IMG/VR virus record: IMGVR_UViG_3300035665_000004
Coordinates: 32,001-96,000 of that record
Origin: a virus
Length of the DNA stretch: 64,000 nt
Direction: 5' to 3' (one strand)
Shown here piece after piece: positions 16,773 through 42,647 of this stretch. Position numbers and translations under genes: made by a program. How positions within the stretch are numbered: position 1 is the stretch's first letter; every line of letters starts with the position of its first letter. Under the pieces are notes generated by a model that did not search any database, was not told the origin of the DNA, and saw nothing but the letters and a program-made list of their open reading frames with translations.

Positions 16773-16828
16773 TAAAATTCCTCATATTTAATTAAGATAT
16801 GAGGAATTTTACAATTTTTTTGCCGATT

Positions 16829-17164: not shown

Positions 17165-17283
17165 AGTTAAAACTCCTGAGTTTTTAATTATTAAGCATTT
17201 TTATTTATTTATTCGTTTTTTACATTTGTTTAAAAATTTTGTAAAATATACTATATACAGTAACAATCTTTAAAAGGAACATT

Positions 17284-18645: not shown

Positions 18646-18671
18646 TTTAAATACCTTTATGGAGTTAAAAA

Positions 18672-19163
18672 ATGGAAAATCCCGAAGTATATGAAGCAGA
18701 ATTAAATTTGGATAATTTTAGTGTTACTGAGGAAAAATCAGATGATCAACAAATGACTGATTTACAAATTTATGGAATTAACTCGGCAACTGTTAGATTA
18801 TTAAGTAAATTGCGAAAATATATTATATTAATCCAACTACAAATAGATTTAGTTTCAAAACCTCAAAGTATTCAACCAGTTATGAGAGAAATCTATCAAT
18901 ATTCTGAAACTCAAATGATCATGGATATTAGAGAAGAATTGGATATGTATCGCGTGTATGCTTCAGATAGAATAGTAATCAAAAATGTAATGCATGTACG
19001 TGAAAAATTTGAACAGGCAATAAGTTATGTTACCGAAAACATGCAAACTGTAGAATCAGTAATCGATAAAAGTTATATCGAAATATTAGATACTTTCATA
19101 GATTCACTACATCAATTAACAGATAAATTAACAAAAAAATCCATTTTATCCGACCAGTATTAA
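18672..19163 (+). CDS. Hypothetical protein
   Basis: 163-aa ORF with GGAG RBS. Confidence 0.6.
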   Translation: MENPEVYEAELNLDNFSVTEEKSDDQQMTDLQIYGINSATVRLLSKLRKYIILIQLQIDLVSKPQSIQPVMREIYQYSETQMIMDIREELDMYRVYASDRIVIKNVMHVREKFEQAISYVTENMQTVESVIDKSYIEILDTFIDSLHQLTDKLTKKSILSDQY

Positions 19164-19223
19164 TTAAATTTATTTGGTATAATAAATTTTTAATTTTAAA
19201 AAAACAATCACAGGATTATTAAC

Positions 19224-20189
19224 ATGAGTAATTTGCGAAATAGATTATGGGTAGCAAAATATGCACCTACAAACTTTGATGATACTATCATGCCTATAGA
19301 AATAAAAGAAAAAATGCAAAATTTTGTAAAAACCCAGGATATTCCTAATCTATTACTTGCAGGACCGCCCGGAACTGGCAAAACCACATCTGGACATGCA
19401 TTATTACAACAATTGAAAGTTGATAAAGGTGATATTATGTTTATCAACGCTTCAGATATTAACTCAGTTGATGCAGTTCGAAATATTATAACTCCATTTG
19501 CAATGAGCATGAGTATTAATAATGAATTACCAATTAGATTTATTTTTTTAGATGAAGCGGATCATCTTAGTCCACAAGCTCAAGCTGCTTTAAGAAATTT
19601 AATTGAAGCAACATATAATAGTGCGAGATTTATTTTAACTGCAAATTATCCTAAAAAAATTATTCCGGCATTACACAGTAGAGTACAAACTTTTGTTTTA
19701 GAAAAACCTGCACTCGATTCAATTTTAGAAAGAGTGTTAAATATTCTCGAAAGTGAGGAAGTAGAAATAGAATCGGAAGATGATTTGGTTTCATTAATTC
19801 GAAATAATAGCACTGATATTAGAAAATTAATTCAACTGTTACAACAAAATACAATCATCAATGGAAAATCTAAGATTTTAAGAGTTAAAACTAAGCAAGA
19901 TGCGTGTAGTGAAACATTTGTAGAATATATTAACTTATTTAAAAAGAATGATGGTAAGGCATTACGAAATTTAGTATTCACGGCATTCACAGATAGTGAT
20001 TGTGACGAATTTTGGTCGTTATTCATTGATGATATTATCAAAAATAGCTCAACATATGAGAATATTGGAGCTGGTATAGATAATACCATTTATCATCTGA
20101 ATGAGGGACAAAAAAACCACGAAGTTGTTGCAAACAAACAATTAAATGTGTTAGGATTTACATTGGCGGCATTAAATGTTGGTGCATAA
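19224..20189 (+). CDS. Clamp-loader AAA+ subunit (RFC / T4 gp44-like)
   Basis: WVAKYAP, GPPGTGKTT, INASD, FLDEAD, AQAALRNLIE, FILTAN and SR motifs. Confidence 0.92.
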   Translation: MSNLRNRLWVAKYAPTNFDDTIMPIEIKEKMQNFVKTQDIPNLLLAGPPGTGKTTSGHALLQQLKVDKGDIMFINASDINSVDAVRNIITPFAMSMSINNELPIRFIFLDEADHLSPQAQAALRNLIEATYNSARFILTANYPKKIIPALHSRVQTFVLEKPALDSILERVLNILESEEVEIESEDDLVSLIRNNSTDIRKLIQLLQQNTIINGKSKILRVKTKQDACSETFVEYINLFKKNDGKALRNLVFTAFTDSDCDEFWSLFIDDIIKNSSTYENIGAGIDNTIYHLNEGQKNHEVVANKQLNVLGFTLAALNVGA

Positions 20190-22663: not shown

Positions 22664-24646
22664 TTATCTCCAATTCTCAGAAATTTCTTCAATTTCAGTT
22701 ATTATACATTTATTCGTTTTCAATACAATTTCAATCAAATAACCAAAATCAGATTGTACGGTTGATAATGTTCCTACAGTCCAGGGACATTCGTATCCAG
22801 TTGTAGTTTTTGATATTGTGGCTGCACATCCAGTACCATCAACGGTAAATTCCTCTGTAAACTCAAGGGTATCAAACAATTTGTTAATATTCAACCAACC
22901 AGTAATACCAGGAAATTTAATATGTACGTCAAAATCAATACCAATTATATTTTCAGTAGTTATCTTCAATACACCGTTTGAATTTGGTTTATTATTAGCA
23001 TATATTCTTCTATAATAATACTGTGGACTAGTTGACAGTGATGAATAATCGGTGTTTATGTTATAATCGATAAAATTTGATTTTGCTCTTATTAACGAAC
23101 CCATATATTGTTGTGCATTTCCAGTTTTCAAGTTTGTGGTAGAATCCCACGTACCTACAGTGTTACTACTAACACTCGTAGAGTCATTTTGGTTAATCAC
23201 ATTAATGTTGATTCTATACTCCTCATCAACAAAAGTTTCTTTTAACGGTGTTGAATTGCCTGTCGATGGGTAAGTATCTATTAAAATTTTATGAACCAAT
23301 GTATCAGATGGACCCCATCCAGTGATAGGTTTACCAGCCTTAGCTGTAATGGTAACGTTATCAGCGAAAGTTGAAGGTGAATCATAAGAAATAGTATAAC
23401 CCACTAAACTAAATTCATGATTCCATAACGGAACTTTTAAACCTTTCATAGTTGACTTAGTGGAATTCCATTCAAGGAGATCGTGTGTTGACCCATCCAT
23501 TTTAATAGAAATTGGTTTATCCCAATAAGTATAAGTGAAAACATTTTTAGCCACATAATCAAATACAAATGAAATTTTAGTATTTAAAAAAGGAATTCCA
23601 GATAAAAATTTAGGTATTCCACTTTTTGAATTAAACCCATTAATTTTTGATGATGGTGGCACACTATTTGGATCATAAAACAACTCCATTGTATTTGTTT
23701 TGAACGGTGGGGTTGGTATCTCTGCATTAACATCGGTTATATCGTGCTCAACTCGAAAAGTGTGTCTTCCCGGTGAAATATTACAGTTTATAATTCCCGA
23801 ACCACATTGCCATCTTTTAAAATCATTATATCTTTCAATTTTAGTTATTATCAATGATCCAGTTGAACTCTTATATTTTTCTTTATTTGGATTTGCATTG
23901 ATAGATAGTGGATTACCATCAAAATCATGTGTGTCTTGCTTTATTGTGGGGTCATATCCCTGTGTAACACCAAAATAATCTCGGCTTGGTTCATTGAACA
24001 ATCCATATAAATCTACCCCTGCATCAACCAGAACTTCATCAGAATATACAACGATTTTCCCTTTATCTGCCTTACCAAATTGGCGTTGTAACTTCCCTTT
24101 AGTTACTGTACCGTCAACAGGTAATGTTGCCTTTACATTCGATGAACCAATAATATATGAAATCTCATCACCTGCGGAGACACCATTTAAATTTATTTTA
24201 TCAGGAGCTGTATCTGTCAGCGATGAGATTTTGCCAACATATTGTTTTTGTTCAATTAAAACCAAATCACCTCTAAGCATAGTTGCTGCAGGTGGTGCTA
24301 AATCTTTCAACGCCTCATTAACATCATCCATGGCATCTGAAATTTTAGTCTGTTCGGTAAAATCAAATAAGCCGTCGGGCCAATAACCACCATCCTTGGT
24401 TGGACCTAATGCGTCAACACCAACTACTCTAACTTCCATTTCTTCAGGTTTAACTGGTAAACCTGTTGTTTTATCCAATTTTAAAAAAACACCTTGTAAC
24501 TTTCCAATAGAGGTATTAAACCAAAAACGTCCTAATTTCCATTCTTTTTCTGCTGGAACAGTATCTAAATTTTCGGGAACAAGATTTTTAATTTGTGCAT
24601 TTGGACTTAACCGTAAATGTTGCTTCAATTTAAACTCAGCAGACAT
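22664..24646 (-). CDS. Putative virion structural protein
   Basis: About 660 aa, beta-rich; ATG 24646 after GGAG; exact TATAAATA upstream. Confidence 0.55.
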   Translation of the reverse strand: MSAEFKLKQHLRLSPNAQIKNLVPENLDTVPAEKEWKLGRFWFNTSIGKLQGVFLKLDKTTGLPVKPEEMEVRVVGVDALGPTKDGGYWPDGLFDFTEQTKISDAMDDVNEALKDLAPPAATMLRGDLVLIEQKQYVGKISSLTDTAPDKINLNGVSAGDEISYIIGSSNVKATLPVDGTVTKGKLQRQFGKADKGKIVVYSDEVLVDAGVDLYGLFNEPSRDYFGVTQGYDPTIKQDTHDFDGNPLSINANPNKEKYKSSTGSLIITKIERYNDFKRWQCGSGIINCNISPGRHTFRVEHDITDVNAEIPTPPFKTNTMELFYDPNSVPPSSKINGFNSKSGIPKFLSGIPFLNTKISFVFDYVAKNVFTYTYWDKPISIKMDGSTHDLLEWNSTKSTMKGLKVPLWNHEFSLVGYTISYDSPSTFADNVTITAKAGKPITGWGPSDTLVHKILIDTYPSTGNSTPLKETFVDEEYRININVINQNDSTSVSSNTVGTWDSTTNLKTGNAQQYMGSLIRAKSNFIDYNINTDYSSLSTSPQYYYRRIYANNKPNSNGVLKITTENIIGIDFDVHIKFPGITGWLNINKLFDTLEFTEEFTVDGTGCAATISKTTTGYECPWTVGTLSTVQSDFGYLIEIVLKTNKCIITEIEEISENWR

Positions 24647-27538: not shown

Positions 27539-28438
27539 ATGAGAAAAAAATTACACAAACATACATCACATGATACCGAATTGATTCCTCAAAATATTTT
27601 TCCAAAACAAAAGAATGTCTACGTTGGTGAGGACCAAGATAGAAATATAGCGATTGTACTAATATATGGTGTTATTGATGAACCCGATGAGTATGTTGAT
27701 GAACTATTAAAATTAAACTGTTTATCATCAAAATATGATGTTGTTGAAGTCACGTTAAATTCACCTGGTGGTAGTTTAAATACAACTGTTGATATGCTTT
27801 CAACAATTAATAAATTTGAGGTTGTTATTACTATTGGTAAAGGTGAGGTTGCATCTGCGGCATTTATGTTATGGGCAAGTGGTGATATTAGAGTAGTTAC
27901 AGATTATTCAATGTACATGGCTCATAGAGAATCGTATGGTATGTATGGAAAAACATCCGAACATAGAGATGCTGCTCAAACATTTGGTAAAGTGTATGAG
28001 GAGCTATTTGAGGAATGTTTTGGTGATTTATTAAATGATAAGGAAAAACTTATTGCTGAAAGATCTGAAACTTGGCTATCTTATAAAGATCTATTAGAAA
28101 GAGATAGAGTTATTAGTTATGATAAATATGTTGTTCCTACAAATCTTTATTCTGTTGTTGAATTGTTTGTTACCGATTCTGGTTCAATATTTATGAAGGA
28201 CCCTGATTCGGATTCATTCAGAAGTGTAACTCTACAATATGGTGACGAAGCTCTCGAAAATATGACCAACTATCTTTATGGTATTGCACCAATAACTAAA
28301 ATGCCAACTGAGGTACCTACAACAAAACCTAAAGCGAATATATCTTCAAGATTGAAAAACAAAAATGTAAAATCTACCGATGATACGACATCGACAAACA
28401 AAAAACCAAAAAATAAAACTGGAGAAAACAATGAGTGA
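27539..28438 (+). CDS. ClpP-like serine protease, second paralogue
   Basis: LNSPGG, VASAA (Ser) and YMAHR (His), plus a C-terminal extension. Confidence 0.75.
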   Translation: MRKKLHKHTSHDTELIPQNIFPKQKNVYVGEDQDRNIAIVLIYGVIDEPDEYVDELLKLNCLSSKYDVVEVTLNSPGGSLNTTVDMLSTINKFEVVITIGKGEVASAAFMLWASGDIRVVTDYSMYMAHRESYGMYGKTSEHRDAAQTFGKVYEELFEECFGDLLNDKEKLIAERSETWLSYKDLLERDRVISYDKYVVPTNLYSVVELFVTDSGSIFMKDPDSDSFRSVTLQYGDEALENMTNYLYGIAPITKMPTEVPTTKPKANISSRLKNKNVKSTDDTTSTNKKPKNKTGENNE

Positions 28439-29306
28439 TTTATCTGAATTAGAAATCGAAAGAGCATTAGAAATAGCAAATATACACAAAGAGGGTAATA
28501 ATATTACTCTGACTGATATTGACCATTATATAAAAAATGCTATAAGTGTTGAATTTAAATCTAAATTCCCAAATGACAATTTTGATGTATCGTGGCATAC
28601 CTACAAAGCTATTGGTTGTTTCCCAGCATTGGGAAATGCCTATGATATTGGTATTTCAATTGATAAACCAACTCATTATCTAATGCGATTAGTTGCTACC
28701 TGGCATATTGAAAAAGCATTGAAAGCATTAAAATTTGACACCGATAACGATCCAAATTTATTAAGTGAACCGGAATTTGCAAACATTGGTACTGCAGGTA
28801 GAATTGCGAAAATTTGGGCTGGTAGTAGTTTAGATCCAGAAAATATTAGAGAATATGGTGATGGTAGATGGGTAAAACCACCAAGATTAGCAACTTTCCC
28901 TGCAAAAGATGCAGATCGTGGAAGACCAGTTACAGTAGTTATTAATAATCCAGGTATTGGTAGTGTATGTTCACATCACTTTTTACCATACAGCATACAA
29001 AATTCTGAGAACAGCAAAATTGTTATTTCTTATATTCCCAACAAAAAATTATTGGGATTATCAAAAATTGGTAGATTTGTAGAATGGTGTTTAAATAGAC
29101 CTTCTTTACAAGAAGAAGCGACTGAATTAATCTTTAAAAAAATTAAAGAAATTGCCGAAACAGATGATGTTTATGTTGGGTTGATTGAGTTAGAGCATAG
29201 CTGTGAGACCACACGAGGTAGCAAACAACATAGCACAACCACTACTGAGGATTATAGTGGTGCGTATAATGATATTACATATCGAAATTCGATTCTTAAA
29301 TACTAG
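28431..29306 (+). CDS. folE: GTP cyclohydrolase I with an N-terminal extension
   Basis: SVCSHHFLPY, GLSKIGR, RPSLQE and HSCETTRG motifs; ATG 28431 after GGAG. Confidence 0.88.
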   Translation: MSDLSELEIERALEIANIHKEGNNITLTDIDHYIKNAISVEFKSKFPNDNFDVSWHTYKAIGCFPALGNAYDIGISIDKPTHYLMRLVATWHIEKALKALKFDTDNDPNLLSEPEFANIGTAGRIAKIWAGSSLDPENIREYGDGRWVKPPRLATFPAKDADRGRPVTVVINNPGIGSVCSHHFLPYSIQNSENSKIVISYIPNKKLLGLSKIGRFVEWCLNRPSLQEEATELIFKKIKEIAETDDVYVGLIELEHSCETTRGSKQHSTTTTEDYSGAYNDITYRNSILKY

Positions 29307-29367
29307 TTTGTCGACCACATCATATAATTCATATATGATGTGGTTAAAAAAATAAAGGTATCAAAAC

Positions 29368-29880
29368 ATGCAATACAATGAAAAATTATCGAATGAAAAA
29401 TTAGGTGCATTTCAACAAGTTTCATCTGGTTATGATATTGGCAATTTATCAACACAAAACAAATCATTTATAAAATCAAAAACTAAAAATCCATTATCGT
29501 TCAAAATTAAAGATATTGAAACTGTTGGTAACTCCAGTGAAATATTAAAAGTTTTATTTTCTAATGGATTAGTAGCAAGGATAATTAAATTCACAGATAA
29601 AGAAAATCGTGCCTCATCATCATTCGATATAGTTGATGAATTAAAAAAAGAAATCTTAGTCAATACCGATAAATCATTTACTGGTGGTACTGGTATAGCA
29701 GAATCATTATTCAAAATAAATTTTATATCTCAATGGGAGGTGCCAATATTTACAAAACTGTGTCGGGGTTTTATTTTAGGTGATCCAGAATCAATAAAAA
29801 AACTTATGTTTGACTACAACTTAAAAATAACAGAAGATACCGAATGGAAAATAAAAGAAATCATTGGAGTTAGCAAATGA
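29368..29880 (+). CDS. Hypothetical protein
   Basis: 170-aa ORF, coupled to the next gene. Confidence 0.6.
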   Translation: MQYNEKLSNEKLGAFQQVSSGYDIGNLSTQNKSFIKSKTKNPLSFKIKDIETVGNSSEILKVLFSNGLVARIIKFTDKENRASSSFDIVDELKKEILVNTDKSFTGGTGIAESLFKINFISQWEVPIFTKLCRGFILGDPESIKKLMFDYNLKITEDTEWKIKEIIGVSK

Positions 29881-30599
29881 AATATGCCCCCTATTCTTTC
29901 TCCAAGATTCAAACCTTTTTTGAATGTCAGAAAAAATTTGAATACACTTACGTTAATAAAATACCAATCGATTATGATTATGTTGACCCAATATACTTTA
30001 AAAGAGGTAGATTTTTACACGCCTATATAGCAGATAGATTAAATGGTGGTGATGGGCTAACTATAAGTCGACACAATATTGATATTGGTGAAAAACTAAA
30101 ATTAGTAGAATTTGCAGATGTAACATTAAACAATGAATATATCAGTCTAACTTATGATTTTAATACCAATAAGGTTGAATCATTCGTTGCACTAGATCAC
30201 GAATTAAAACCATCAAATAAAAAAAATAAATCGGCATTAAGTGGGTATATTGATTATTATGCTGTTCATGATGATTATGGAATGATTGTAGATTGGAAAT
30301 CAGGAAAATATCATAGTACCCCACACTACTTTCAACTCGAACTATATGCGATTTGGATCTTCCAAAAATACCCAGAGGTAACAGAATTAGATTTAGTGTT
30401 TTATTATGTTGAGCATAATAAATTTCAAGTCAAAACAATAAATCCCAATGATGTTTTTGAATTAAAAACCACCCTTTCTGCAAAAATAACTATCATTGAA
30501 AATACAAACACCTTTGAGGTAAACAAATCAAAAAAATGTACATCCTGTCAATTTTTTAATGTGTGTAATTCTGAATTTGGTGTTGTTGGTGATATTTAA
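29877..30599 (+). CDS. PD-(D/E)XK exonuclease, Cas4/AddB-like
   Basis: GYID, VDWKSGK and QLELYA motifs; one N-terminal Cys plus CxxC(5x)C at the C-terminus. Confidence 0.8.
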   Translation: MKYAPYSFSKIQTFFECQKKFEYTYVNKIPIDYDYVDPIYFKRGRFLHAYIADRLNGGDGLTISRHNIDIGEKLKLVEFADVTLNNEYISLTYDFNTNKVESFVALDHELKPSNKKNKSALSGYIDYYAVHDDYGMIVDWKSGKYHSTPHYFQLELYAIWIFQKYPEVTELDLVFYYVEHNKFQVKTINPNDVFELKTTLSAKITIIENTNTFEVNKSKKCTSCQFFNVCNSEFGVVGDI

Positions 30600-30650: not shown

Positions 30651-31091
30651 TTATGTGATAGTTTTATAACCACCACCACTTTTATTAATACTACTATAAA
30701 CTGAACCAATGTCAGTAGATATAGGTTTAGTTGCCACAGATTCGTTAGATGTATTCTGCTCGTTCATAATTTGAATAAGTGCTTTCTTTATAGCTTCCTC
30801 ATATATAAAATTTGATACTTGACCAGCAATGTTTGCGTAAGGTTTATTATTTTTCATAATCACCATTGCTGGAACGGTACTCATCAAAAAATACTGTGCC
30901 AATTTACCTGTTTCCTCATCTATTGCACAGGTATATATGTCAATTTTTCCACAAAATTTTTCATCAAAATTATCAAACATCTTGAAAATATTTTCTAAAT
31001 TTGGGAGTTTATTAGAATAAAATAAAATCATAAATGTTCGACCATTAAATAAAACATCATCGATAATATCATCGGTTATCTTAGCAATCAT
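30651..31091 (-). CDS. Thioredoxin-fold protein lacking CxxC
   Basis: ILFYS...LAQYFLMSTVPAMVIMKN matches the Trx fold, but there are no active-site cysteines. Confidence 0.6.
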   Translation of the reverse strand: MIAKITDDIIDDVLFNGRTFMILFYSNKLPNLENIFKMFDNFDEKFCGKIDIYTCAIDEETGKLAQYFLMSTVPAMVIMKNNKPYANIAGQVSNFIYEEAIKKALIQIMNEQNTSNESVATKPISTDIGSVYSSINKSGGGYKTIT

Positions 31092-31433
31092 ATTTTTTCT
31101 CCTTGGTATTATTAATCTACAGGATTATACAAAAAATATTTCTTAGTAATCTTTGAATTTTGTAGTTAAAGAATAAGATTTACTAGAATATGATAGTGGT
31201 GTTAAAACTATATATTAATAAGGTGTTTTTTTGCACATATTCCAACAAAATTTATTTCATATGTATATTCGTATATTATTATCAAATCTGAATTTAATTT
31301 TGGTTTTTGTTATTGCTGAAAGCAATTATTCCTCAGAGGCTCCTCTTTAATATTCTTTAATATCTATTCTTTAGGAAAATATTTTTCATTTTTATGCTAT
31401 ATTAATAAAGTGTTTTAACTGGCAAGATGTGAA

Positions 31434-31552
31434 AAATCCATTTTAGTTTTGGTTGTGGTGGGAAAAAATCAATTTTAGTTTTGGTTGTTTTGACATGAAA
31501 TCCATTTTAGTTTTGGTTGTGGTGGGAAAAAATCAATTTTAGTTTTGGTTGT
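31434..31552 (+). repeat. Four 23-bp iterons with exact 32-bp periodicity (putative replication origin)
   Basis: aaatc(c/a)attttagttttggttgt at 31434, 31466, 31498 and 31530, ~110 bp upstream of rep, with AT-rich flanks. Confidence 0.9.
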
Positions 31553-31662
31553 TTGCTAATTGAAACAAATTTTGCAAGTATATTCAAAATTGATAAAAAA
31601 CAATTTTTTTTATATAATAAAAATGTATAATATGATTATGAAATAATCTTTGAGGTAAAAAA

Positions 31663-32859
31663 ATGAAAACTCCCGATAAAATAAATACGGATCGGTATGA
31701 AGTAAACAAACCATCAGAACTGTGTCAAGTAATATTCATCAAGAATTTTAAAAATGATTTTGAAATTTACAAAATTAGTCCTATGCAATTGGATCTAATA
31801 AATGGTATAATTTATAAGGTTCGGGAAATCATAATTAAGGAAAATTTAAACATCGATGATGAAATTCCATCTACATTATTCGACATAAAACTAAATGATT
31901 TTGCAAATATGTTTTCCGCTTATACTAATAACGACTATAAGGTTTTACTTGAAAAACTTATAGAATTGTCAGAAATGAAAATTATTATAAATGCCCTAGG
32001 TAAAAATAAAGATATTGATGAAACAATCATGACTAGGTTTATTCATGAGATACGACTATCAAAACATAAACATCAAAAAAACCAAAGAATTAGAGTTGCG
32101 ATTTCTAATATTATAATTAACAGGTTTATTAACGTAAAAAAATATTTTTCCAAAATGTTTTTTACAATCCAATTTTCGATGGTATCAAAATACTCAAAGT
32201 TATTATATGAATTATTGAAAGATTATGAAAATATTAAAAAAATAGAATTGACTGTAAATTCATTGCATGATTTACTAAATGTTGTTGAACCAAACCAACG
32301 CAAATGGACATTATTTAATCAAAATATTTTGAAAAAAGCTGTCAATGAAATCAATGAAAAAGCAGATATTAAAGTTTTTTACGAACCTATTAAAGAAAGA
32401 CCATCATCAACTGAAAGATTGCAGGTAACAAAAGTTAAATTTGTTATCGAGAAACAAACGGAGTCAAGACTACAATCACTAGGGTTAATTCATGAATCGA
32501 TAAAATCCAATAAGTTCTATAATAAGTCGAAAAATAAATTAGACAAATTATTGAAAACTGGGTACAAACTAATCGATGAAGAAAAATGGATTGAAACCGA
32601 CATCAAAAACAATGCTGTCCGATATGATGCTGAAATAAGAATTGATAACTGGTTGAAAAATACACCACAAGATGATAAAAATAACATATATGCAATGCTT
32701 GCAAAAACACTTGATGATTGTGACGAACAATTTATTTATATTGATGGATATTTAATTAGAGGAGTTTTTTCGAATGATTCATATACTAGAAACCCAATGG
32801 AAACTATTTCTGTAATGAATGAGTTGATCAACCAAATTTCTTCAAACTCAACCAATTAA
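31663..32859 (+). CDS. Plasmid-type replication initiator (Rep_3 / RepB family)
   Basis: SKYSKLLYELLKDY, LHDLLNV and NILKKAVNEINEKADIKVFYE winged-helix motifs; GAGG RBS; TGTATAAT at 31624. Confidence 0.88.
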   Translation: MKTPDKINTDRYEVNKPSELCQVIFIKNFKNDFEIYKISPMQLDLINGIIYKVREIIIKENLNIDDEIPSTLFDIKLNDFANMFSAYTNNDYKVLLEKLIELSEMKIIINALGKNKDIDETIMTRFIHEIRLSKHKHQKNQRIRVAISNIIINRFINVKKYFSKMFFTIQFSMVSKYSKLLYELLKDYENIKKIELTVNSLHDLLNVVEPNQRKWTLFNQNILKKAVNEINEKADIKVFYEPIKERPSSTERLQVTKVKFVIEKQTESRLQSLGLIHESIKSNKFYNKSKNKLDKLLKTGYKLIDEEKWIETDIKNNAVRYDAEIRIDNWLKNTPQDDKNNIYAMLAKTLDDCDEQFIYIDGYLIRGVFSNDSYTRNPMETISVMNELINQISSNSTN

Positions 32860-32915
32860 AATGAACTTCATTATTTTTTTGTAAAATTAATAAAAAAACA
32901 TGGAATAATAATATT

Positions 32916-35429
32916 ATGCTAAAAAATCCAAATCCAAATCAAGAAGTGATTGATTTTTATAATTTACTCAAAACCAATCCAGACAAACAGTGGTATGAAT
33001 ACGAGGAATACAAATTTGTATTAATTGCAGAAAAACCTAGTCAAATAAAAAGTTTAAGAGCCGTACTTCCTAAAGGGAAACATATCAAAATAATTTCTTT
33101 AGCAGGGCATATCATGAGATTAAAAAATTTTGAAGAGTACGATTTATCTTTAAAAGATAAATCCTGGTACAAAATGGTAAAAGATGATAATCTACCATTC
33201 ATACCCAATGAATTTGAATCAGTAGTAAAAGAAAAATCCACAGGTAAATTCAGAACAGATTACAATGAAATGTTTTTATCGTTGAAGCGTTCGACAAAAG
33301 AAGCAGATTTCATTATTTCGGTAGCAGATCCAGATAATGAAGGGTGTTCATTGATGTATCAACCAGTTGATTATGCTGGTAATAGTCAAAAAATTCTTGG
33401 TCAAATCAATATGTCGAAGTTAGATTTTTTCTCATTACAGGAAGAAATTAAAACATTTGATACAATCGATTATTTTAGTATGGCACAAGCAGGTATTGCG
33501 AGAAGTGAGTTTGATTGGACTTTTGGATTAAACAATACCATATTAGCATCCGTTCTATTAGGTGGCGGTCAAACATATCATATCGGAGGTGTTAAATCAC
33601 CAGTATTGAGAATGGTCTATGATAGAATCAAAAGTATTGAATCATTCAAACCTGAAAAATATTGTCAGTTTTTAGGTGAAGCAAAACATACAAAAACTGG
33701 AGTAGATTTTAAATACATTGTTAAAGTTAAACAAAATGATACCGAAATTATCAACACTCAGGATAAAATTGATATATTGGAAATGAAGATAAATGGTATG
33801 GACAAAGAAAACCCAGAAATATTGGGTGAAATAGGTAATTTATATGTGGAATTGGGAAAATTGCGATGGAAACTCAACGAATTAATTAAAGATTATGAAT
33901 CCTCGGAACGAGACATTTACAATAGAACTATACGTACCAAAATAGAAAATGTAATCAAAGATGGTATGAAATTTAAAATATCAAATTTTGAGACTAAAAA
34001 AGGGTTAACTCAAAATCCACCTTTGGCATACTCATTAACCGATTTACAGGCTGAGGCTGGTAACAGTCATAATTTTACACCAGCCAAAACATTAGAAATC
34101 GCACAGAAACTTTATGAAGGTCAATGGCAGTCTTATCCTCGAACGGATAACAGATATTATGCAACTGGTGAGATGGCAAATATAAAGAAAATAATTCCAA
34201 ATTTATTGGGATTAACAACTTTTTCTAATGTTAAAATACCTGTACCTTATAAGGTTAATACGGGAGTATTCAACTCAGCAAAAATTTCTGCTCATACAGG
34301 GTTATCACCAACAACCAAGGAAATAAAAGATTCATCATTAACTGGCGAAATGAAAACTATATATGATATGGTTTCAACAAGGTATCTAATTCAATTTATG
34401 GACAAATTTGAATACTACCAGGTAAAGTTGGATGTTGATGTTGATGTTGACATTTATATCACTACACATCAAAATATAGAAGTTAAAAAAGGATGGCGAG
34501 AATTATATAATCCTGCAAATATGTATGGTTTCAATTATGTACAAAAACAAACATTACCAAATATGTTAATTGGTGATGAAATTGAAATACTATCTATCAC
34601 TCGTGAAGATTTACAAACAAAACCATCACCAATGTTTAACGATTTTTCATTGTTGAAAGGTATGGAAAATATTGGTCGAATTTATTCAGAATTGGAGGGA
34701 TTAGAAAAAGGCATTGGTACACCGGCCACAAGAGCCAGTATCTTGGATCAGTTATTTAAGGCAAAATATTTAATTAAGAAAGGAAAAATTGTTGATTTGA
34801 GTCCAAAAGCTAAAATGCTCATTAAATTATTACCAGATGAAATGACATCACCAAAATTAAGAGCTGATATGGAAGCAAAGTTAAATGATATTATTTCCAA
34901 TAAAATAACCAAATTAGATTATGAAACTGAATTTAAAGAATTGATTTCTGACCAAACTAAATCTTTATATGAAATTTCAAAAAATAACAAAATAGAAGTC
35001 ATTGATAAAGCAACATTACCACCTTCAGATGCCCAAATAAAATTTGCAAATCAAATCGCAAAAGAATTAAAATTATCCATACCTAAAGAGGCTTTAAAAT
35101 TAAAAGACGAGATGATGCAGTGGTTGAAAAAAAATGAAAAAAATATGCCTCAACTTTTAAGTGAAAAACAGTATTTATTCCTTAAAGAATATGGTAGTGA
35201 CGATGAAAAAATTGTTTCGATCTTAGAGGCTCAAGATAATAGAACAATGACAAAAGAACAAAAGTTTGAAGCAAGTAAATGGTTAGGTTCGTTCATCAGA
35301 ACTAGCAAATATCAAAAATTACGTGCCGCAAAAGGAGCAGCTACTAAAAAAAGAAATAGAGAGGAAAAAATGAAATCTTTAGGTGTTGTTGTACCTGATG
35401 TAAAGTTGAAATCTTTAAAAAAGAAATAG
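32916..35429 (+). CDS. Type IA DNA topoisomerase (Topo III-like)
   Basis: TOPRIM AEKPS and ADPDNEG, catalytic SYPRTD, GIGTPATRASI, and C-terminal PSDAQ/SEKQ repeats. Confidence 0.9.
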   Translation: MLKNPNPNQEVIDFYNLLKTNPDKQWYEYEEYKFVLIAEKPSQIKSLRAVLPKGKHIKIISLAGHIMRLKNFEEYDLSLKDKSWYKMVKDDNLPFIPNEFESVVKEKSTGKFRTDYNEMFLSLKRSTKEADFIISVADPDNEGCSLMYQPVDYAGNSQKILGQINMSKLDFFSLQEEIKTFDTIDYFSMAQAGIARSEFDWTFGLNNTILASVLLGGGQTYHIGGVKSPVLRMVYDRIKSIESFKPEKYCQFLGEAKHTKTGVDFKYIVKVKQNDTEIINTQDKIDILEMKINGMDKENPEILGEIGNLYVELGKLRWKLNELIKDYESSERDIYNRTIRTKIENVIKDGMKFKISNFETKKGLTQNPPLAYSLTDLQAEAGNSHNFTPAKTLEIAQKLYEGQWQSYPRTDNRYYATGEMANIKKIIPNLLGLTTFSNVKIPVPYKVNTGVFNSAKISAHTGLSPTTKEIKDSSLTGEMKTIYDMVSTRYLIQFMDKFEYYQVKLDVDVDVDIYITTHQNIEVKKGWRELYNPANMYGFNYVQKQTLPNMLIGDEIEILSITREDLQTKPSPMFNDFSLLKGMENIGRIYSELEGLEKGIGTPATRASILDQLFKAKYLIKKGKIVDLSPKAKMLIKLLPDEMTSPKLRADMEAKLNDIISNKITKLDYETEFKELISDQTKSLYEISKNNKIEVIDKATLPPSDAQIKFANQIAKELKLSIPKEALKLKDEMMQWLKKNEKNMPQLLSEKQYLFLKEYGSDDEKIVSILEAQDNRTMTKEQKFEASKWLGSFIRTSKYQKLRAAKGAATKKRNREEKMKSLGVVVPDVKLKSLKKK

Positions 35430-35666: not shown

Positions 35667-36746
35667 TCACGCAATGAAAGTTATTTTTATATACCCTTCA
35701 TAATCATTAAATGTGCCGATATTGGATATATTTGAACCATTAAATACGGTAGAATCATCAAACTTACCATCGCTAGTTGCAATGGAAGTGGCTGTATTAA
35801 TTATAAATGAACCGCCACCAATACCTGAAAGATAAGAACCACCCATACTTGTTTGACCACCTAAACCGCCAGAATAACCTCCACCTCCGCCACCAGAGTT
35901 ATTACCCGAATGTCCACCACCACCGCCACCAAAACCACCTTGTGCAGCATTAGTTGTCGAGTTTCCTCCGGTACAATAAAATGGTCCTGAAGCAGATGAA
36001 ACAGCCCCACCAACAAATGCTGCCCCGTGTGTGTATTGTTGAGCTGATGAATCAGTAGCCATTGCCGCAGAATTAGTATAACCTGGATAATCTTCACCAC
36101 TACCAAACCAACCACCTCCGCCACCACCATGATAACCTCGACCACCATAACTTAATGTTGGGTGTGTTCCAGATACCGATGGAGAATAATTGTATCCTGT
36201 AAACAATGGTTGTCTTCTAGTTTGACCATTTATATATTCTTGTGTAGTCATACTACTGTAAAATCCAGCACCACCACCAGCAACAATAATTGGTGTGTTT
36301 GTACCATAAAGACAAATAAATGAACCACCACCACCACCAGAATATGATGTTCCAGGTGCAATCGAACCTGTATCACCAGGTACTTGACCAACAACCATTT
36401 CTAACTTATCAGTTGTAGTAAATGGTATTCTTGCTCTAATTATTGCACCTTTACCATTAGTAGATGGCGTAGTATATTGGCCTCTTGCACCTGCGATTTC
36501 AATCTCATAAATTCCAGTTTTGGGAATTTGAAACACCTGATACCCCTGTGCTCTCCCTTGATAGAAATAATTGGTATTTGATGCCCATGTTTGACTACTA
36601 TATGTGGATTGTAATTGTGCTAATGTTGGACCGTGTCTACCAACTTTTCCACCAGGCGTAAATGTATGAGTCGTAAACCCAGTATATAATGTTGCTCCAC
36701 CACCTGAAGATGTATTACTTAAAAAAGATAAATTAATACCACTCAT
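35667..36746 (-). CDS. Glycine-rich-domain virion / fibre-associated protein
   Basis: GYQVFQIPKTGIYEIEIAGARG plus multiple GGGGG runs. Confidence 0.65.
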   Translation of the reverse strand: MSGINLSFLSNTSSGGGATLYTGFTTHTFTPGGKVGRHGPTLAQLQSTYSSQTWASNTNYFYQGRAQGYQVFQIPKTGIYEIEIAGARGQYTTPSTNGKGAIIRARIPFTTTDKLEMVVGQVPGDTGSIAPGTSYSGGGGGSFICLYGTNTPIIVAGGGAGFYSSMTTQEYINGQTRRQPLFTGYNYSPSVSGTHPTLSYGGRGYHGGGGGGWFGSGEDYPGYTNSAAMATDSSAQQYTHGAAFVGGAVSSASGPFYCTGGNSTTNAAQGGFGGGGGGHSGNNSGGGGGGYSGGLGGQTSMGGSYLSGIGGGSFIINTATSIATSDGKFDDSTVFNGSNISNIGTFNDYEGYIKITFIA

Positions 36747-37612
36747 GACACATTACCTGTAATTATACCAGTATTTGCATTATAAAAAAGAACAGTACAT
36801 AATCCGCGTGAAGCGAGTGTTAAAGATGTTTTTGTTGTATTTGAACCAGCAACATATGTTGTGATTGCAGAACAGGTAATTGTTAATGTGCTGGCAGTAT
36901 TATTAAATATTGTGATAATATCACCAGCAGCAAAAACATTTGCGGGTACTGTTATTGCCCCATTAGTTCCTAAACTTACAAATTTACCGATATCAGAGGT
37001 TGATAAAGTATATGATGATGTTTTATCTGTACCAGATAAAGGCATATTTCTATATCCAATATCTACTAAATCAATTTTACAATTCACTAAATTACCTGAA
37101 ACTGGCGTTCCAAGTGCAGGATTTGTTCCAAGTTTAGAATTAACAGTATTTGTCAATGACGTGATTGCAGCATTATTAGATGTTACATAACCTGCGAATG
37201 CATTATCATTAGTTGTATCAACTGAGTTAATCAAAGTAACAATTTCAGCAAATGAATCTTTATCAGCAGATGATGCTGATAAAATAGCATCAATTCTAGC
37301 TTTTTCACTTGCTAAGTTATTGGTTAATGTTGTATCCGCAGCTTGTCTAGCTAATACCTCATTAGTTAAATTAGTGGTTAATGTGTTATCAGCATTTGTT
37401 CTTGAAGTTGCTTCAGAAGCAAGATTATTAGTTAATGTTGTGATAGCTGTTTCTCTAGATGTAACCTCAGTATTAATCGCAGCTTGTCTAGCTGTTGCTT
37501 CATTAGAAATTGCAGCAGTTAAAGTAGTAACTGCTGCTTGTCTGGCTGTAGCTTCATTGGTAACTGCTGTAGAAACTACACTACCCATTTTTTTAAAAAT
37601 TGAATCAGGCAT
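36743..37612 (-). CDS. Short fibre-like protein with coiled-coil repeats
   Basis: NEATARQAA repeats; shares a 45-aa block with 4311..7601. Confidence 0.65.
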   Translation of the reverse strand: MPDSIFKKMGSVVSTAVTNEATARQAAVTTLTAAISNEATARQAAINTEVTSRETAITTLTNNLASEATSRTNADNTLTTNLTNEVLARQAADTTLTNNLASEKARIDAILSASSADKDSFAEIVTLINSVDTTNDNAFAGYVTSNNAAITSLTNTVNSKLGTNPALGTPVSGNLVNCKIDLVDIGYRNMPLSGTDKTSSYTLSTSDIGKFVSLGTNGAITVPANVFAAGDIITIFNNTASTLTITCSAITTYVAGSNTTKTSLTLASRGLCTVLFYNANTGIITGNVS

Positions 37613-37765: not shown

Positions 37766-38809
37766 TTATTTTTTTGCCGGATTTTTAATCGGTTCAATAA
37801 TTTCTTTAGCATACCAACCTATTTGAAATTCTGTAGAATTTCTTTCTAATTGTTTAAGAGTGTTTTCACTACAATTCACAAAAATTGGGCAACCGTTATT
37901 TTTGTATGATTCAGTTAATTTACGTCTTGAGAGTTTATGTTTTTTGCAGAAATCATCAAAATTTCCATATGACGTACCAAACAAAGTACCATCCACACGG
38001 TAAACTGAAATCTTTTTAGAATTAGGGGAAACGTAAAAATCATAAGCATCAAACTCACGTTTGGTCACTACCTTATTTTTTCCATCTCTAATATCCAAAA
38101 CAGTTACTCTATCCTCAGATACATGTTTAAAAAATTCATTTTGTTCATATTCCATCTTAGAAACTAACTTGTATTTTTCAGCAATAACATCAAAAACTAA
38201 AACACACCCCTTATTTTGTCGAACATAATAATCGAATTCGTAAAATTCTTTAGTTGTTACCTGAACTGTGGTTCCATTTCTAATATCAATAACAGAAACT
38301 TTTCCAGTAGCCGCAGTAATATATTGATCCGACGAATTATATTCATTAACACTTATACTTTTGATAACGTTGTCTTTGGTATCAAAAACAGTAACGAACC
38401 CTTTTGTACAATGTTGGTAAAAATCAGTATTTTTTAATTCCTCTTTCACCACCAACTTTGTTAACCCAGTTCTCACATCAATAACTGGAACTAATCCTAC
38501 AGTAGTGAAACCATTACTAATTGATTTAACTTTGTTATAATATTCGGTGTTTCTTGAAACATCATACAATTCGTGTAATCTTATTTCTTCATTGAGTGCA
38601 TATTCTCTTGTTTCCCAAACTGATAATATTTCTTTTTTAAAATTTTCAATTCCACCAAATTTAATTGCATTCTTTAAAGGTGTAGAAGACCCCATATATT
38701 TCACATCTTTTTCTGGAGAAACTTTTGATGTTCTAACACCTATATAATATTTTTGGTTATCGATAGGGACAGTATTAATTATTTTGTAAACATAATGATA
38801 TTGTTTCAA
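37766..38809 (-). CDS. Free-standing GIY-YIG homing endonuclease (Seg-like)
   Basis: YVYKIIN...YYIGVR, YMGSS and EEIRL..YN motifs, then about six VxD(x)4-5VxxxE(F/Y) repeats. Confidence 0.85.
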   Translation of the reverse strand: MKQYHYVYKIINTVPIDNQKYYIGVRTSKVSPEKDVKYMGSSTPLKNAIKFGGIENFKKEILSVWETREYALNEEIRLHELYDVSRNTEYYNKVKSISNGFTTVGLVPVIDVRTGLTKLVVKEELKNTDFYQHCTKGFVTVFDTKDNVIKSISVNEYNSSDQYITAATGKVSVIDIRNGTTVQVTTKEFYEFDYYVRQNKGCVLVFDVIAEKYKLVSKMEYEQNEFFKHVSEDRVTVLDIRDGKNKVVTKREFDAYDFYVSPNSKKISVYRVDGTLFGTSYGNFDDFCKKHKLSRRKLTESYKNNGCPIFVNCSENTLKQLERNSTEFQIGWYAKEIIEPIKNPAKK

Positions 38810-38899
38810 ATTTTCTCCCTGTGCTAAAAATTATTAATTTCCTAACCATTATACAAACTATTGTATAATATAATATATTCTTATTAATTGGTAAAAAAT

Positions 38900-39019
38900 A
38901 TGTTGAAAAAAGTTAAAGTTAAATCGGTTAAAAAAATTGATTATTCTGGTAAAGTATATGATGTAGTTATGAAAAGTAACCCACATACATTTTTTGCAAA
39001 TAATATTTTGGTACATAAT
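38900..39019 (+). mobile_element. Split intein, C-half (40 aa)
   Basis: Blocks F/G end in His-Asn before Ser+1 (39020-39022); 8 Lys versus 2 Asp. Confidence 0.9.
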
Positions 39020-40045
39020 TCCTGTTATTTCAGAGTAATGGAGGCAGAAAACTTAGAACAGGCAGAAAAAATAAGTAGAGAGGTAGTTGACGCCTGTGAT
39101 AAAAAATCTATCCCATCAATAGTTACCAATATTTTTAATGGTAATGACATTATGCGTAGTGATTTTGAAGCAATTTCTCGATCAACACTGTCGTATGGTA
39201 AGAAAAAACAATACGCATTTCTTAAAGCCTGGGAGGATGGAGAAACCTTACCAACTCCAAAATTAAGCATCACTGGTTTATCAATTAAAAGAAGTGATTC
39301 ACCAAAACAGTTATCTACTGAAATGAAACCATTCTTTACCGAAATTATGAAAGGTTTAACAAAAGAACAGATAAAAATCGCAATGGATAAAATTGAAAAA
39401 GATTATGATGCTCTACCAACATATGAATTGGCAGCTAAACGTTCAGCGAATAACTTATCAAAATATTTAAGGGCATTTAACTATGAATTAGTTAAAAAGG
39501 ATAGACCATACAACATCGAAAAATTAGATGAGGCAGTTGAAAACGCTTGTGATGGGCGAGTATCCATCGATGATAAAATTTATGATGATTTCATGAGAAC
39601 AGGCAAAGGTGTTTATTCCATCGAAAATAATAAATTGGTTAAAGATATAAAAGGTGATTTAATCATAGAGGCAAAAGTTAAAATGGTTATTCCATTTCAT
39701 ATCAAAGCATCGATACTTTATAATTATTTGTTAGAATTATACGATTTAAATGATTTCAATCCAATTTTAGATGGTGAAAAAATAAAATTATTTTATATTC
39801 AACCACAAAAATTTAATATAAAATACACGGATCTAGATGGAAACAAATATGATATGATACAAACTTTTGATTGTATTGCGTTCCCATCAAACTCAAAAAA
39901 AATACCAAATTTTATCAATACATTTACACCAGACAAAAAAAGAATGTTGGATACTTATTTCTTTGGTAAAATGGAAACAATTTTTGATGTTATCGATTTT
40001 AATAAAGAAAAATTAGAAAATATATCAATGGATTTATTGTTTTGA
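38900..40045 (+). CDS. C-terminal half of the split intein fused to the family-B DNA polymerase C-terminal fragment (palm/thumb)
   Basis: A 40-aa IntC ending VYDV...FFANNILVHN is followed by SCYF; PolB motifs KKKQYA, ITGLSIKRSD and HIKASILYN follow. Confidence 0.9.
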   Translation: MLKKVKVKSVKKIDYSGKVYDVVMKSNPHTFFANNILVHNSCYFRVMEAENLEQAEKISREVVDACDKKSIPSIVTNIFNGNDIMRSDFEAISRSTLSYGKKKQYAFLKAWEDGETLPTPKLSITGLSIKRSDSPKQLSTEMKPFFTEIMKGLTKEQIKIAMDKIEKDYDALPTYELAAKRSANNLSKYLRAFNYELVKKDRPYNIEKLDEAVENACDGRVSIDDKIYDDFMRTGKGVYSIENNKLVKDIKGDLIIEAKVKMVIPFHIKASILYNYLLELYDLNDFNPILDGEKIKLFYIQPQKFNIKYTDLDGNKYDMIQTFDCIAFPSNSKKIPNFINTFTPDKKRMLDTYFFGKMETIFDVIDFNKEKLENISMDLLF

Positions 40046-40154: not shown

Positions 40155-42647
40155 ATGCCCACTAATATAAAAATTGATACCCTGACTATTGATATTTTGA
40201 ATCATCTCAATATAATTGTGACCGACGCTAATAATAATATAACCTTTATTAGTGACAACTATTTAAATGCGTTGGAATATACTATCGATGAGGTTATTGG
40301 AAAAAATCCTATAATTTTTAGACATCCAACAATTAATAATCTACCAATATTAAATTTTGTAAATAAAAATGGTGGACATTGGAACGGATTATTAAAAAAT
40401 ATTACAAAAAGTGGAAAAACTATATATTTCAATGCCGATATTTACAAAGATTATGATGAAAATGGTAATCATATTGGGTATCATTCAATACATACTGACA
40501 TAACTACAACTATAACAAACCCCCATAAATTTATTTTTGATAATGAACTTTTATCAATTATATTTTCAGAAAATATAGAATACCTAATCATCTGTTTGAG
40601 TGACGAGTTCGATGAAAATAAACACGAAATTATCAAGATTAGTCACCCATTACTAGAATTGATAGGTATTGAAGCCGATAAATTAGTTGAGCAACACGCA
40701 AGTTTTGTAGATTTAATATCACCAAAGTCAATTTATTACAAAAATTTAAAACTGTTAATGCATGATCTTAACAATGAAAACCCATTACCGGTTGATATAA
40801 AAACGAAAAATAGGGATGCAAAATACAGAGTTTCATACACCCCTTTCAAATTCAATGATAAAGCAGCTCAATTATTTACGATGATTGACATAACCACCGA
40901 AATATCTTTTTCCGATCAACTCCAAAGTATAATAAAATCAAAAAATGAATTTTTGGCAAATTTAGCCCACGAAATTAAAACTCCATTGAATGCAATTAAT
41001 GGTTTTATTTCACTACTACAAATGCGTGAAACAAATAAAGAAAAACTAGACTATATTGAATTAGTGTTGGAAAGTGTTAAACATGTAATAAACATTTCCA
41101 ACGATACCATCGATTTTATTGGTATGGATAATAGTAAAATAGAGATAAATCCTAGAGAATTTACACCAAAAGATATTCAGTCAACCATAGAAATATTTTT
41201 TGCAAAGAGTTTAGAAAAAAACATTGAATTGACTGCATATATTTCACCACAATTACCAGAAATAATGTTTCAAGATATTTTGCGATTAAAACAAATCATA
41301 ACCAATCTTATCAGTAATGCATTAAAATTCGTTAATGTTGATGGTAGAGGAACTATAGTGATAGAATGTCATTTCAACAATGACAAATTTTATTTTACTA
41401 TTGTCGATAATGGAATTGGAATGTCCACAGAACAAATAGAAAATATATTTAATCCTTTTTATCAGGCATCAAAAGATACAAAAATGGTTTATGGTGGTAC
41501 AGGGTTAGGATTGGCTGTTGTTAATCAAATAATTGAACTTATGGGTGGTAGTATTACTGTAGAAAGTGAACTCGGTGTAGGTTCAACATTTTCAGTTATT
41601 ATACCAGTAAAATCAGTTAAAGAGTTTCAACATACAATTGGTCGAATGGATATACCAAACATTTACATTTATGCCCCATCATTTTCCAATACAAAACATG
41701 AAATTTTAAAGAAATATCTGTTCGATTTTACAACCGCAAAGATCAATAAAGTTGCAGAAATTGATACATTGAATTCAATAACGGATAGTGTGATACTACT
41801 TTATGTATGTGATACAGATATAAAAACTATACTCCAATTAAGTAAAACAAATAGAATTATTGTAGTTAAAAAAATGGACATGGTTATCAACAATTTTACA
41901 AATTCGTCCGAAATAATAGAAATAAATTTACCCATTTTAGGATCAAAAATATATGATGCACTAAATTTACTAATATCCGGTAGAATGGAACAATTCTATA
42001 AAAATAACTTCTTAGATATGACAATATCTGGTAGAATATTGGTGGCAGATGATCAAGAATCGAATAGACTACTAATAAATCGATTATTATCATGTTATGA
42101 TGTAACGATTGATGTAGTATGTGATGGTAGAGAGGCAGTTAATTATTTTAAAAAGAGTATAATAGAAAACAAATCGTATTACGACTTAATATTGCTTGAC
42201 GTCAACATGCCAATATTAAACGGCGTTGATGCCGCGAGAGAAATAAGACTTTTCGAAAAAATGAATAATATTACTAGAACTACAATAATATCATTAACAG
42301 CGGATAGATATACGGACAAAAATGATAGTAGATTGGTAGATATGGATGAATATATACCCAAACCTATTAATTTAAAACGGATGTTATATCTAATTGTGAA
42401 ATACACAACTGATCTAAAATTGGTTGATGAAAACTTGTTATACGATGAAAAAATTAAAAAATTGAAAGAGATACGTGACGAATTTTTAAAACCAAATAAT
42501 GAATTTAAAACAATGATAGACAATTATAAAAAACATTTTGATGGTTCGGAATTACCAATTATTGAAGGTTTAAAAGATTTAACTAATAAAAATGAATTCA
42601 CTGCAAACTATAATAAAATTATGAAAATTTTTAGGAAGCACGGATGA
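40155..42647 (+). CDS. Cytoplasmic PAS-domain hybrid histidine kinase / response regulator
   Basis: PAS (IGKN..RHP, W.G..KN), H box AHEIKTPLNAI, N box NLISNALKF, DNGIG, F box, GGTGLGL, and receiver ADD...LLDVNMP...LTA...KP. Confidence 0.95.
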   Translation: MPTNIKIDTLTIDILNHLNIIVTDANNNITFISDNYLNALEYTIDEVIGKNPIIFRHPTINNLPILNFVNKNGGHWNGLLKNITKSGKTIYFNADIYKDYDENGNHIGYHSIHTDITTTITNPHKFIFDNELLSIIFSENIEYLIICLSDEFDENKHEIIKISHPLLELIGIEADKLVEQHASFVDLISPKSIYYKNLKLLMHDLNNENPLPVDIKTKNRDAKYRVSYTPFKFNDKAAQLFTMIDITTEISFSDQLQSIIKSKNEFLANLAHEIKTPLNAINGFISLLQMRETNKEKLDYIELVLESVKHVINISNDTIDFIGMDNSKIEINPREFTPKDIQSTIEIFFAKSLEKNIELTAYISPQLPEIMFQDILRLKQIITNLISNALKFVNVDGRGTIVIECHFNNDKFYFTIVDNGIGMSTEQIENIFNPFYQASKDTKMVYGGTGLGLAVVNQIIELMGGSITVESELGVGSTFSVIIPVKSVKEFQHTIGRMDIPNIYIYAPSFSNTKHEILKKYLFDFTTAKINKVAEIDTLNSITDSVILLYVCDTDIKTILQLSKTNRIIVVKKMDMVINNFTNSSEIIEINLPILGSKIYDALNLLISGRMEQFYKNNFLDMTISGRILVADDQESNRLLINRLLSCYDVTIDVVCDGREAVNYFKKSIIENKSYYDLILLDVNMPILNGVDAAREIRLFEKMNNITRTTIISLTADRYTDKNDSRLVDMDEYIPKPINLKRMLYLIVKYTTDLKLVDENLLYDEKIKKLKEIRDEFLKPNNEFKTMIDNYKKHFDGSELPIIEGLKDLTNKNEFTANYNKIMKIFRKHG

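Follow-up and report, generated by a model that had tools for sequence, protein, structure and literature searches.

We analyzed a 64,000-nucleotide stretch of viral DNA (positions 32,001 to 96,000 of IMG/VR record IMGVR_UViG_3300035665_000004; hereafter the window, to which all coordinates refer unless another contig is named). Our subject is a segment (31092–35429) in which an AT-rich spacer with direct repeats (iterons) is followed by rep, a gene for a plasmid-type replication initiator, and by a gene for a type IA topoisomerase resembling topoisomerase III (Topo III). The record is a single virus contig of 121,946 bp (G000), and it was compared with a 306-kb relative (G001) and with other loci and contigs (L0xx). 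The spacer (31092–31662, 571 bp, read on the plus strand) is bounded by a thioredoxin-like gene on the minus strand (30651–31091) and by rep (31663–32859, plus strand), and the Topo III-like gene (32916–35429, plus strand) is the next gene downstream, co-directional with rep. No open reading frame (ORF) of at least 50 aa in the ORF list lies wholly inside the spacer, and its AT content is 62–93% in 40-bp windows. This confirms what an initial annotation, made from the sequence alone, had described as a gene-free, AT-rich region with four iterons before a Rep_3 gene.

Rep (398 aa) has two winged-helix domains (WH1, residues about 17–170, and WH2, about 172–266) and a helical C-terminal domain (about 267–398). 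It matches Pfam Rep3_N at residues 36–186 (39.9 bits, cut-off 22.4) and Rep3_C at residues 198–260 (37.6 bits, cut-off 21.1), and a profile built from Rep relatives matches the PDB entries of RepE (mini-F) and pi (R6K) at about 2e-9. The AlphaFold2 model of Rep (predicted local distance difference test score, pLDDT, 89) was matched by Foldseek to monomeric RepE54 bound to iteron DNA (E = 3.6e-12, template modeling score by target 0.81–0.85, ~256 columns), and VIA superposition returned pi (Z = 17.6, root-mean-square deviation 3.5, 225 aligned) and RepE (Z = 13.7); sequence identity to RepE and pi is 14–18%. With both Pfam cut-offs passed and a predicted fold matching RepE54 and pi, Rep is an initiator of the Rep_3 (RepE/pi/RepA) family with tandem winged helices, as the initial annotation had proposed. 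The extra helical domain (residues 267–398, ~130 aa) is kept across the clade of related Reps; structural searches with it gave weak helical-bundle likeness alone (VIA Z 5–6, pyrin/death folds) and no convincing match, and its Atlas leads were other Rep C-termini, all sub-threshold.

The four 21-bp iterons are in direct orientation on the plus strand with an exact 32-bp period (31436–31456, 31468–31488, 31500–31520, and 31532–31552). The sequence ATCMATTTTAGTTTTGGTTGT was found four times without a mismatch, starting at 31436, 31468, 31500, and 31532, and no other match was found in the 64-kb window even when three mismatches were allowed (0.03 expected by chance). The locus therefore has the arrangement by which an iteron origin is recognized, i.e., at least three direct repeats of ~17–22 bp, in helical phase, beside rep. 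The four iterons comprise two identical 64-bp units of two iterons each, an exact tandem duplication, and this unit is single in one independent assembly (L020) and in one contig of a 2016 freshwater run; either iteron number ranges from two to four in nature, or the repeat was collapsed by the assembler. Apart from iteron number, the spacer sequence is identical between independent assemblies.

Upstream of the iterons lies a conserved noncoding origin block (31309–31422, plus strand), delimited by the match to a profile of related origins. At its 5′ edge is a mini-hairpin, TTGC-TGAAA-GCAA (31313–31325, plus strand), and within it is a T-rich core of 36 nt, CTCCTCTTTAATATTCTTTAATATCTATTCTTTAGG (31340–31375, plus strand), with three TCTTTA boxes about 10–13 nt apart. 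The core sits in a stretch of 85% AT, and a second AT stretch (90%) lies between the iterons and rep; the core is a candidate DNA-unwinding or priming element. Its 3′ flank consists of the motif TATTAATAAGG and a T-run, and this motif occurs twice in the contig, both times in the origin. Two plus-strand motifs are each followed by a DnaA-box-like sequence: M1, TATATTAATAAGGTGTTTT (31211–31229), which is origin-specific, by TTTTGCACA at 31229–31237, and M2, TATATTAATAAAGTGTTTT (31398–31416), by the inverted TGTGAAAAA at 31428–31436. The pattern TATTAATAA[AG]G has two occurrences in the 122-kb contig, both within the origin, and the same motif is present upstream of the iterons in L005, L008, L011, and L017. 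The relaxed DnaA-box consensus TTWTNCACA is matched twice, at 31229 and 31428.

Between the iterons and rep, the best promoter of the region is of sigma-70 type (TTGATA-17-TATAAT, 31590–31618, plus strand; 11 of 12 positions match), and a second −10-like TATAAT (31626–31631) lies in a stretch that is conserved in an alignment with two relatives. An inverted repeat of the 5′ half of the iteron (AAAATTGAT / AACAATTTT; 31586–31607, plus strand, arms 31586–31594 and 31599–31607) overlaps the −35 hexamer and is a candidate autorepression operator. An Rfam search of the origin region returned nothing beyond one chance-level match.

The same anatomy recurs in relatives. Among 26 distinct regions upstream of rep, 22 have at least three copies of a 12-mer (shuffled controls: 1 of 26), located 50–240 bp before the rep start codon. 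Of the 52 most frequent repeat spacings tallied, 21 are 32 bp, the most common value; spacings of 30–34 bp and of 22 bp come next. Iteron sequences differ among origins, even between the two of G001, as would be expected had each Rep co-evolved with its cognate sites. An exact inverted 8-mer of the origin's own iteron lies between the last iteron and the ATG in 7 of 17 related origins, as opposed to 0.9 expected from shuffles.

An nhmmer profile of the origin block, built from eight origins, has a single match in the 122-kb contig (31309–31422, E = 3e-22). The block (~110 bp) was also found in most related loci, mostly 215–350 bp upstream of rep and in the rep orientation; some loci have a few additional copies at other positions. 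The 36-nt core is nearly invariant in 18 distinct origins in which the Reps are 35–60% identical and the iterons are divergent, and alignments of this contig with those of other phages in the same lakes cover the core stretch only (loose ends at 31335 and 31378). When a loose DNA pattern for the core was searched in public collections, 2 of the 117 listed loci were true origin blocks, both at known Rep loci, and the rest were mostly chance matches; this result has no bearing on bacterial genomes. The mini-hairpin has counterparts at the same place in relatives (TTGC-GAA-GCAA or TCAC-GAA-GTGA, of the GCGAAGC type); its stem co-varies, since relatives pair different stem letters there. In single-sequence folds, roughly half of the origins, but not that of the window, form a strong, variable hairpin immediately 5′ of the core. 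RNAalifold on 18 origin blocks returned no consensus structure, owing to poor alignment of the variable hairpin region. A second set of tandem repeats was seen upstream of the core in two relatives (three of ~96 nt in L008, 9366–9653, and two of 68 nt in L017, 2978–3165); in both, these long repeats lie between the two copies of the TATTAATAAGG motif.

Protein searches covered 5.8 billion plus 1.84 billion proteins and recovered a Rep clade of about 100 clusters with 35–65% identity (22 representatives at E < 1e-30); ordinary Rep_3 proteins follow only after a wide gap, with E of 1e-10 or weaker. The nearest Rep_3 proteins outside the clade are all metagenomic and carry no host clue. Clade Reps are encoded on contigs of up to 306, 290, 228, 224, and 221 kb, and contigs with clade Reps also encode a T4-type portal (Portal_T4), gp15, sheath, gp5, gp13, baseplate, and rIIB proteins. 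By tblastn, neither this Rep nor three divergent clade members had a match in 50,697 GenBank phage records (for this Rep even at E = 5), and no relative of Rep was found among 72,556 PLSDB plasmids. A scan limited to one peptide pattern found no relative in 185,579 bacterial and archaeal GTDB species genomes. A recent plasmid insertion was rejected, given that no plasmid homolog was found and that the module is conserved within the phage clade. The initial annotation had named absence of the block from all close relatives, together with signs of decay, as a refuting outcome; the Rep/iteron module is instead conserved in the clade, and the rep ORF is intact.

Several relatives carry more than one Rep. 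G001 has two, 119 kb apart on opposite strands and 50% identical, and Rep/iteron pairs number two in L006, two in L010, and four within 12 kb in L011, beside rIIB and SIR2. Divergence among the Reps of a single genome equals that seen between phages (20–55% identity). This suggests several orthogonal, protein-initiated origins per genome in the relatives. The surroundings of rep vary, with Topo III here, the portal gene and another site in G001, rIIB/SIR2 in L010 and L011, and tail genes in L012, and rep is often oriented opposite to its neighbors. No conserved element was found downstream of rep in relatives. G000 and G001 have 22 ORFs in common by BLASTP, and Rep (53% identity over its full length) is among the best conserved; most of the remaining common ORFs encode homing endonucleases or glycine-rich repeat proteins. 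In the clade, rep is often followed by, or fused to, a homing-endonuclease gene or domain (T5orf172), and homing endonucleases typically accompany conserved, important phage genes.

The source is an uncultured freshwater (lake) T4-like jumbo myovirus. The initial annotation had noted T4-like replisome genes in the same window, and we recovered them: a gp44-like clamp loader (phrog_168, 5e-67) and pieces of a family-B polymerase (phrog_262 and phrog_1918, weakly Pfam DNA_pol_B) with intein parts. Other replication genes of the contig encode an NAD ligase, a DnaG-like primase, an SbcD-like nuclease, and a topoisomerase II large subunit. Tail-fiber-like and head-maturation-protease-like genes and an endolysin gene are present; portal and major capsid proteins were not identified among the ORFs scanned in the assembled half of the genome. 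The closest proteins of cultured phages are at most about 35% identical to contig proteins (about 30–35% for the replisome). The contig has no terminal repeats, and its CheckV completeness is 48%, so the true genome is probably ~250 kb; G001 is 85% complete.

The gene order thioredoxin-like–origin–rep–Topo III–glycine-rich–SegE is the same in independent ENA and JGI assemblies (65 and 85 kb), parts of it are held by shorter Logan, ENA, and JGI contigs, and contigs from four more lake runs tile the origin region. The identical order in independent assemblies rules out a chimeric join at the borders of the block, a possibility that the initial annotation had left standing. The stretch is present in lake and freshwater metagenomes from 2016 to 2024, and no RNA runs are listed among the public runs that contain it.

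We consider it probable that 31092–32859 is a phage-encoded iteron origin with its initiator, at which replication of the phage genome starts in the lytic cycle. This was the second of two options in the initial annotation, and it is the better supported of them; the module is conserved in the phage clade, and genomes often have several orthogonal copies. We propose the following mechanism. The sigma-70-type promoter would allow rep to be transcribed early by the host RNA polymerase, and, by homology with RepE and pi, Rep monomers would occupy the two to four direct 21-bp iterons, whose 32-bp spacing (about three helical turns) would place the monomers on one face of the DNA. The Rep–iteron complex would then open the adjacent T-rich core (31340–31375), where a helicase and a primase might be loaded to begin theta-type replication, perhaps host DnaB, which plasmids use, or perhaps phage factors, with a helicase possibly encoded in the missing sequence; the clade-specific C-terminal domain of Rep may recruit the helicase or primase. 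By analogy with the RepE operator, Rep dimers on the inverted half-iterons over the −35 hexamer would switch rep off. Later replication would probably depend on T4-like, recombination-dependent initiation. Relatives may use several orthogonal initiator/origin pairs, and further pairs could lie in the unseen half of this phage too.

The family membership and fold of Rep, the repeat statistics, the conservation, the co-variation, and the synteny are direct observations on which this lytic-origin reading builds. Several points weigh against it. Binding, melting, firing, loading, timing, and autoregulation are steps that we infer. The 64-bp duplication that gave the four iterons is very recent, and a two-iteron form also exists. 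Alternatively, the core might belong to a small RNA or a promoter, and the block might act as a terminator; many relatives have a terminator-like hairpin just before the core. Cumulative GC skew has no extremum at the Rep sites in G000 or G001; however, skew tracks gene orientation and is therefore uninformative here, and a flat skew counts neither way in a phage that probably goes over to recombination-dependent replication. No DnaB-family helicase was found in G000 or G001, and both contigs are partial, so the missing match is no proof of dependence on host DnaB.

The other option of the initial annotation was a low-copy phage-plasmid or carrier state, in which the Rep/iteron unit would keep the jumbo genome as an extrachromosomal replicon while host cells divide (pseudolysogeny), as oriR/RepA does for P1. 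We regard this as unlikely. Rep_3 with iterons and an autoregulatory operator is indeed the canonical layout of stable theta plasmids such as mini-F, some jumbo phages have been suggested to undergo pseudolysogeny (PMC7824862, section 3.4.10), the contig encodes two-component sensor proteins, and, with 48% of the genome in hand, maintenance genes could lie in the missing half. However, the initial annotation had advised looking for parAB or a repressor, and in the 48% and 85% complete contigs neither ParA/ParB nor an S24 repressor was found: ParB_N, CbiA/ParA, and Tubulin had no match in G000 or G001 while control genomes matched (ParM-type actins were not searched), and the same holds for Peptidase_S24 and the tyrosine Phage_integrase, again with matching controls (other repressor types were not searched). 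No incC-type extra control iterons were found elsewhere in the window. Together with the lack of relatives among the plasmids (tblastn) and the bacterial and archaeal genomes (one peptide pattern), this leaves the phage-plasmid idea without positive support, and two to four different Rep/iteron pairs per genome resemble a multi-origin virus more than a copy-controlled plasmid. A broader version, that lake T4-like jumbo phages persist as plasmid-like episomes whose orthogonal Rep_3/iteron pairs would give regulated, host-cycle-coupled replication in addition to lytic initiation, seems to us more doubtful still; such carriage would possibly be switched by the phage two-component sensors.

Rep/iteron modules might also be semi-selfish or competitive cassettes that are exchanged among co-occurring jumbo phages, with no single copy essential. 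The variable position of the module, its frequent orientation against the neighboring genes, the few ORFs that G000 and G001 have in common next to a well-conserved Rep, and the divergence of Reps within one genome, which equals that between genomes, would all fit such exchange. On the other hand, no conserved element 3′ of rep marks a cassette boundary, and the core and the iteron layout are strictly conserved, which points to selection on origin function itself. We hold this to be rather improbable as the full explanation, and equally doubtful that the modules persist through private initiation specificity or through interference with rivals in mixed infections; exchange of cassettes is nevertheless compatible with the lytic-origin reading. 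It is very improbable that Rep is a DNA-binding transcription regulator alone, or that the unit is a decaying relic, with the repeats serving as operators and no replication starting there. Winged-helix Rep dimers do repress transcription in plasmids, and GC skew gives no sign of origin use; yet the ORF is intact with a high-confidence fold and full-length relatives in about 100 clusters, an origin-specific noncoding core is conserved across 18 origins, and the iterons are direct and phased, with a separate inverted operator.

The protein and the DNA layout are of an already known kind, the Rep_3 iteron replicon. Mini-F ori2/RepE, R6K gamma-ori/pi, and pPS10/pSC101 RepA have initiators with the same WH1 plus WH2 build, and mini-F shares the order of elements, i.e., an AT-rich element, direct iterons, an inverted half-iteron operator over the promoter, and rep. 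Plasmid iteron origins have repeats of roughly 22 bp. In contrast to plasmid Rep_3 replicons, the present one is found in a T4-like jumbo phage, its initiator has the extra ~130-aa C-terminal domain, the 36-nt core is clade-wide, the period is 32 bp (22 bp in some relatives), and no par locus or incC-type iterons were found.

The closest functional analogy is O/ori-lambda of phage lambda (also G38P/oriL of SPP1), in which a phage initiator and direct repeats beside an AT-rich stretch give a lytic theta start. Lambda differs in that O belongs to another protein family, the iterons are inside the O gene, there is one origin, and the P protein captures host DnaB; no lambda P-like loader was identified in this phage. 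T4, with oriF (uvsY) and oriG, has the same general type of replisome (family-B polymerase and gp44-like clamp loader) and several origins, as the relatives here appear to have, but its origins fire through R-loops formed by RNA polymerase at middle-mode promoters, whereas here there is a dedicated Rep_3 protein with cognate iterons. No origin-binding initiator is known in T4. P1 (oriR/RepA), N15, and SSU5 are likewise tailed phages with a plasmid-type initiator and iterons, but such phage-plasmids carry partition and immunity/repressor circuits and appear in bacterial assemblies, none of which was found here. In layout only, Sulfolobus oriC1–3 is similar, in that several origins each lie beside their own winged-helix initiator gene (Orc1/Cdc6 or WhiP), whose product recognizes them specifically; it differs in the initiator (AAA+ Orc vs. 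Rep_3) and in the domain of life. Multiple origins, in Sulfolobus as here, may have arisen via capture of foreign replicons.

The Topo III-like gene (32916–35429) matches Pfam Topoisom_bac (9.5e-78) and Toprim, and the NCBIfam models NF005829 (Topo 3, 7e-99), topB (2e-86), and topA_bact (3e-39), all under their curated cut-offs, with the best scores to Topo III models. Among the related Rep loci with inspected flanks, none encodes a type IA topoisomerase next to Rep, and G001 (306 kb) has no such gene anywhere. The gene was therefore rejected as a component of the replicon, to which the initial annotation had assigned it: lacking linkage to Rep in the relatives examined, it is a neighbor in this species alone. 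Speculatively, the topoisomerase may help to unlink replication intermediates.

Other genes of the contig were recorded in passing. The DNA polymerase is in pieces, with weak Pfam matches to DNA_pol_B and Intein_splicing at 10937–11752 and the C-terminal part 27 kb away at 38888–40045; a SegE-type GIY-YIG homing endonuclease (37766–38809) is directly upstream of, and divergent from, this C-terminal piece. Further HNH or homing endonucleases were found at 48708–49406 and at G000 112786–113841 and 120944–121837. Upstream of the origin, 27539–30599 encodes a ClpP-like protease, a GTP cyclohydrolase I-like protein (whose ORF overlaps the preceding one), a small helix-turn-helix-like protein, and a Cas4/PD-(D/E)XK nuclease. 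Downstream of Topo III (35667–37612) and at G000 102572–112118 are glycine-rich proteins (ALK_LTK_GRD / Gly_rich_2) with long open antisense frames; glycine-rich segments of 106–175 aa, 61–66% identical, are repeated across several contig ORFs and match a G001 ORF (141740–142555). An 830-aa protein at 40155–42647 has histidine-kinase-type PHROGs matches, and related jumbo contigs encode HisKA/HATPase and receiver proteins near Rep (L008 1396–2960).

Among the relatives, G001 gave only weak, fragmentary matches to DNA polymerase III alpha and family-B polymerase (23737–23961, 257207–257293, and 279573–279878) and no tblastn match to the clamp loader, ligase, or primase of G000; either its replisome is very divergent or fragmented, or it lies in the missing 15%. 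In G001, the T4-type portal gene (L063 6460–9627, i.e., G001 63460–66627) has an intein, and the second rep begins 24 bp after the portal gene on the opposite strand. L011 contains an IS605 OrfB/TnpB-type gene, and the ranges 1902–3089 and 7629–19422 of this contig cover the TnpB-type gene and the four Rep_3 genes. In L008, which comes from a 228-kb relative, a protein of the Acb2/Tad1-hairpin type (anti-CBASS/Thoeris sponge family; 6814–7038) is encoded about 3 kb from the Rep origin.

Neither a 2021 comparative survey of jumbo phages nor a 2026 review mentions Rep_3 or iteron origins, and full-text searches returned no mention. The features that set this replicon apart are the T4-like jumbo setting, the 32-bp phasing, the clade-specific C-terminal domain, the near-invariant 36-nt core, and the multiple orthogonal pairs. 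Replication initiation in jumbo phages is largely unmapped, and the T4 paradigm has no origin-binding protein. The locus also calls for caution, in that a Rep_3 match alone is insufficient to call a virus a phage-plasmid. For a whole clade of abundant lake phages, it provides a concrete, testable origin with an initiator, co-varying sites, and a shared 36-nt core, and the clade offers a natural set of orthogonal Rep/iteron pairs.

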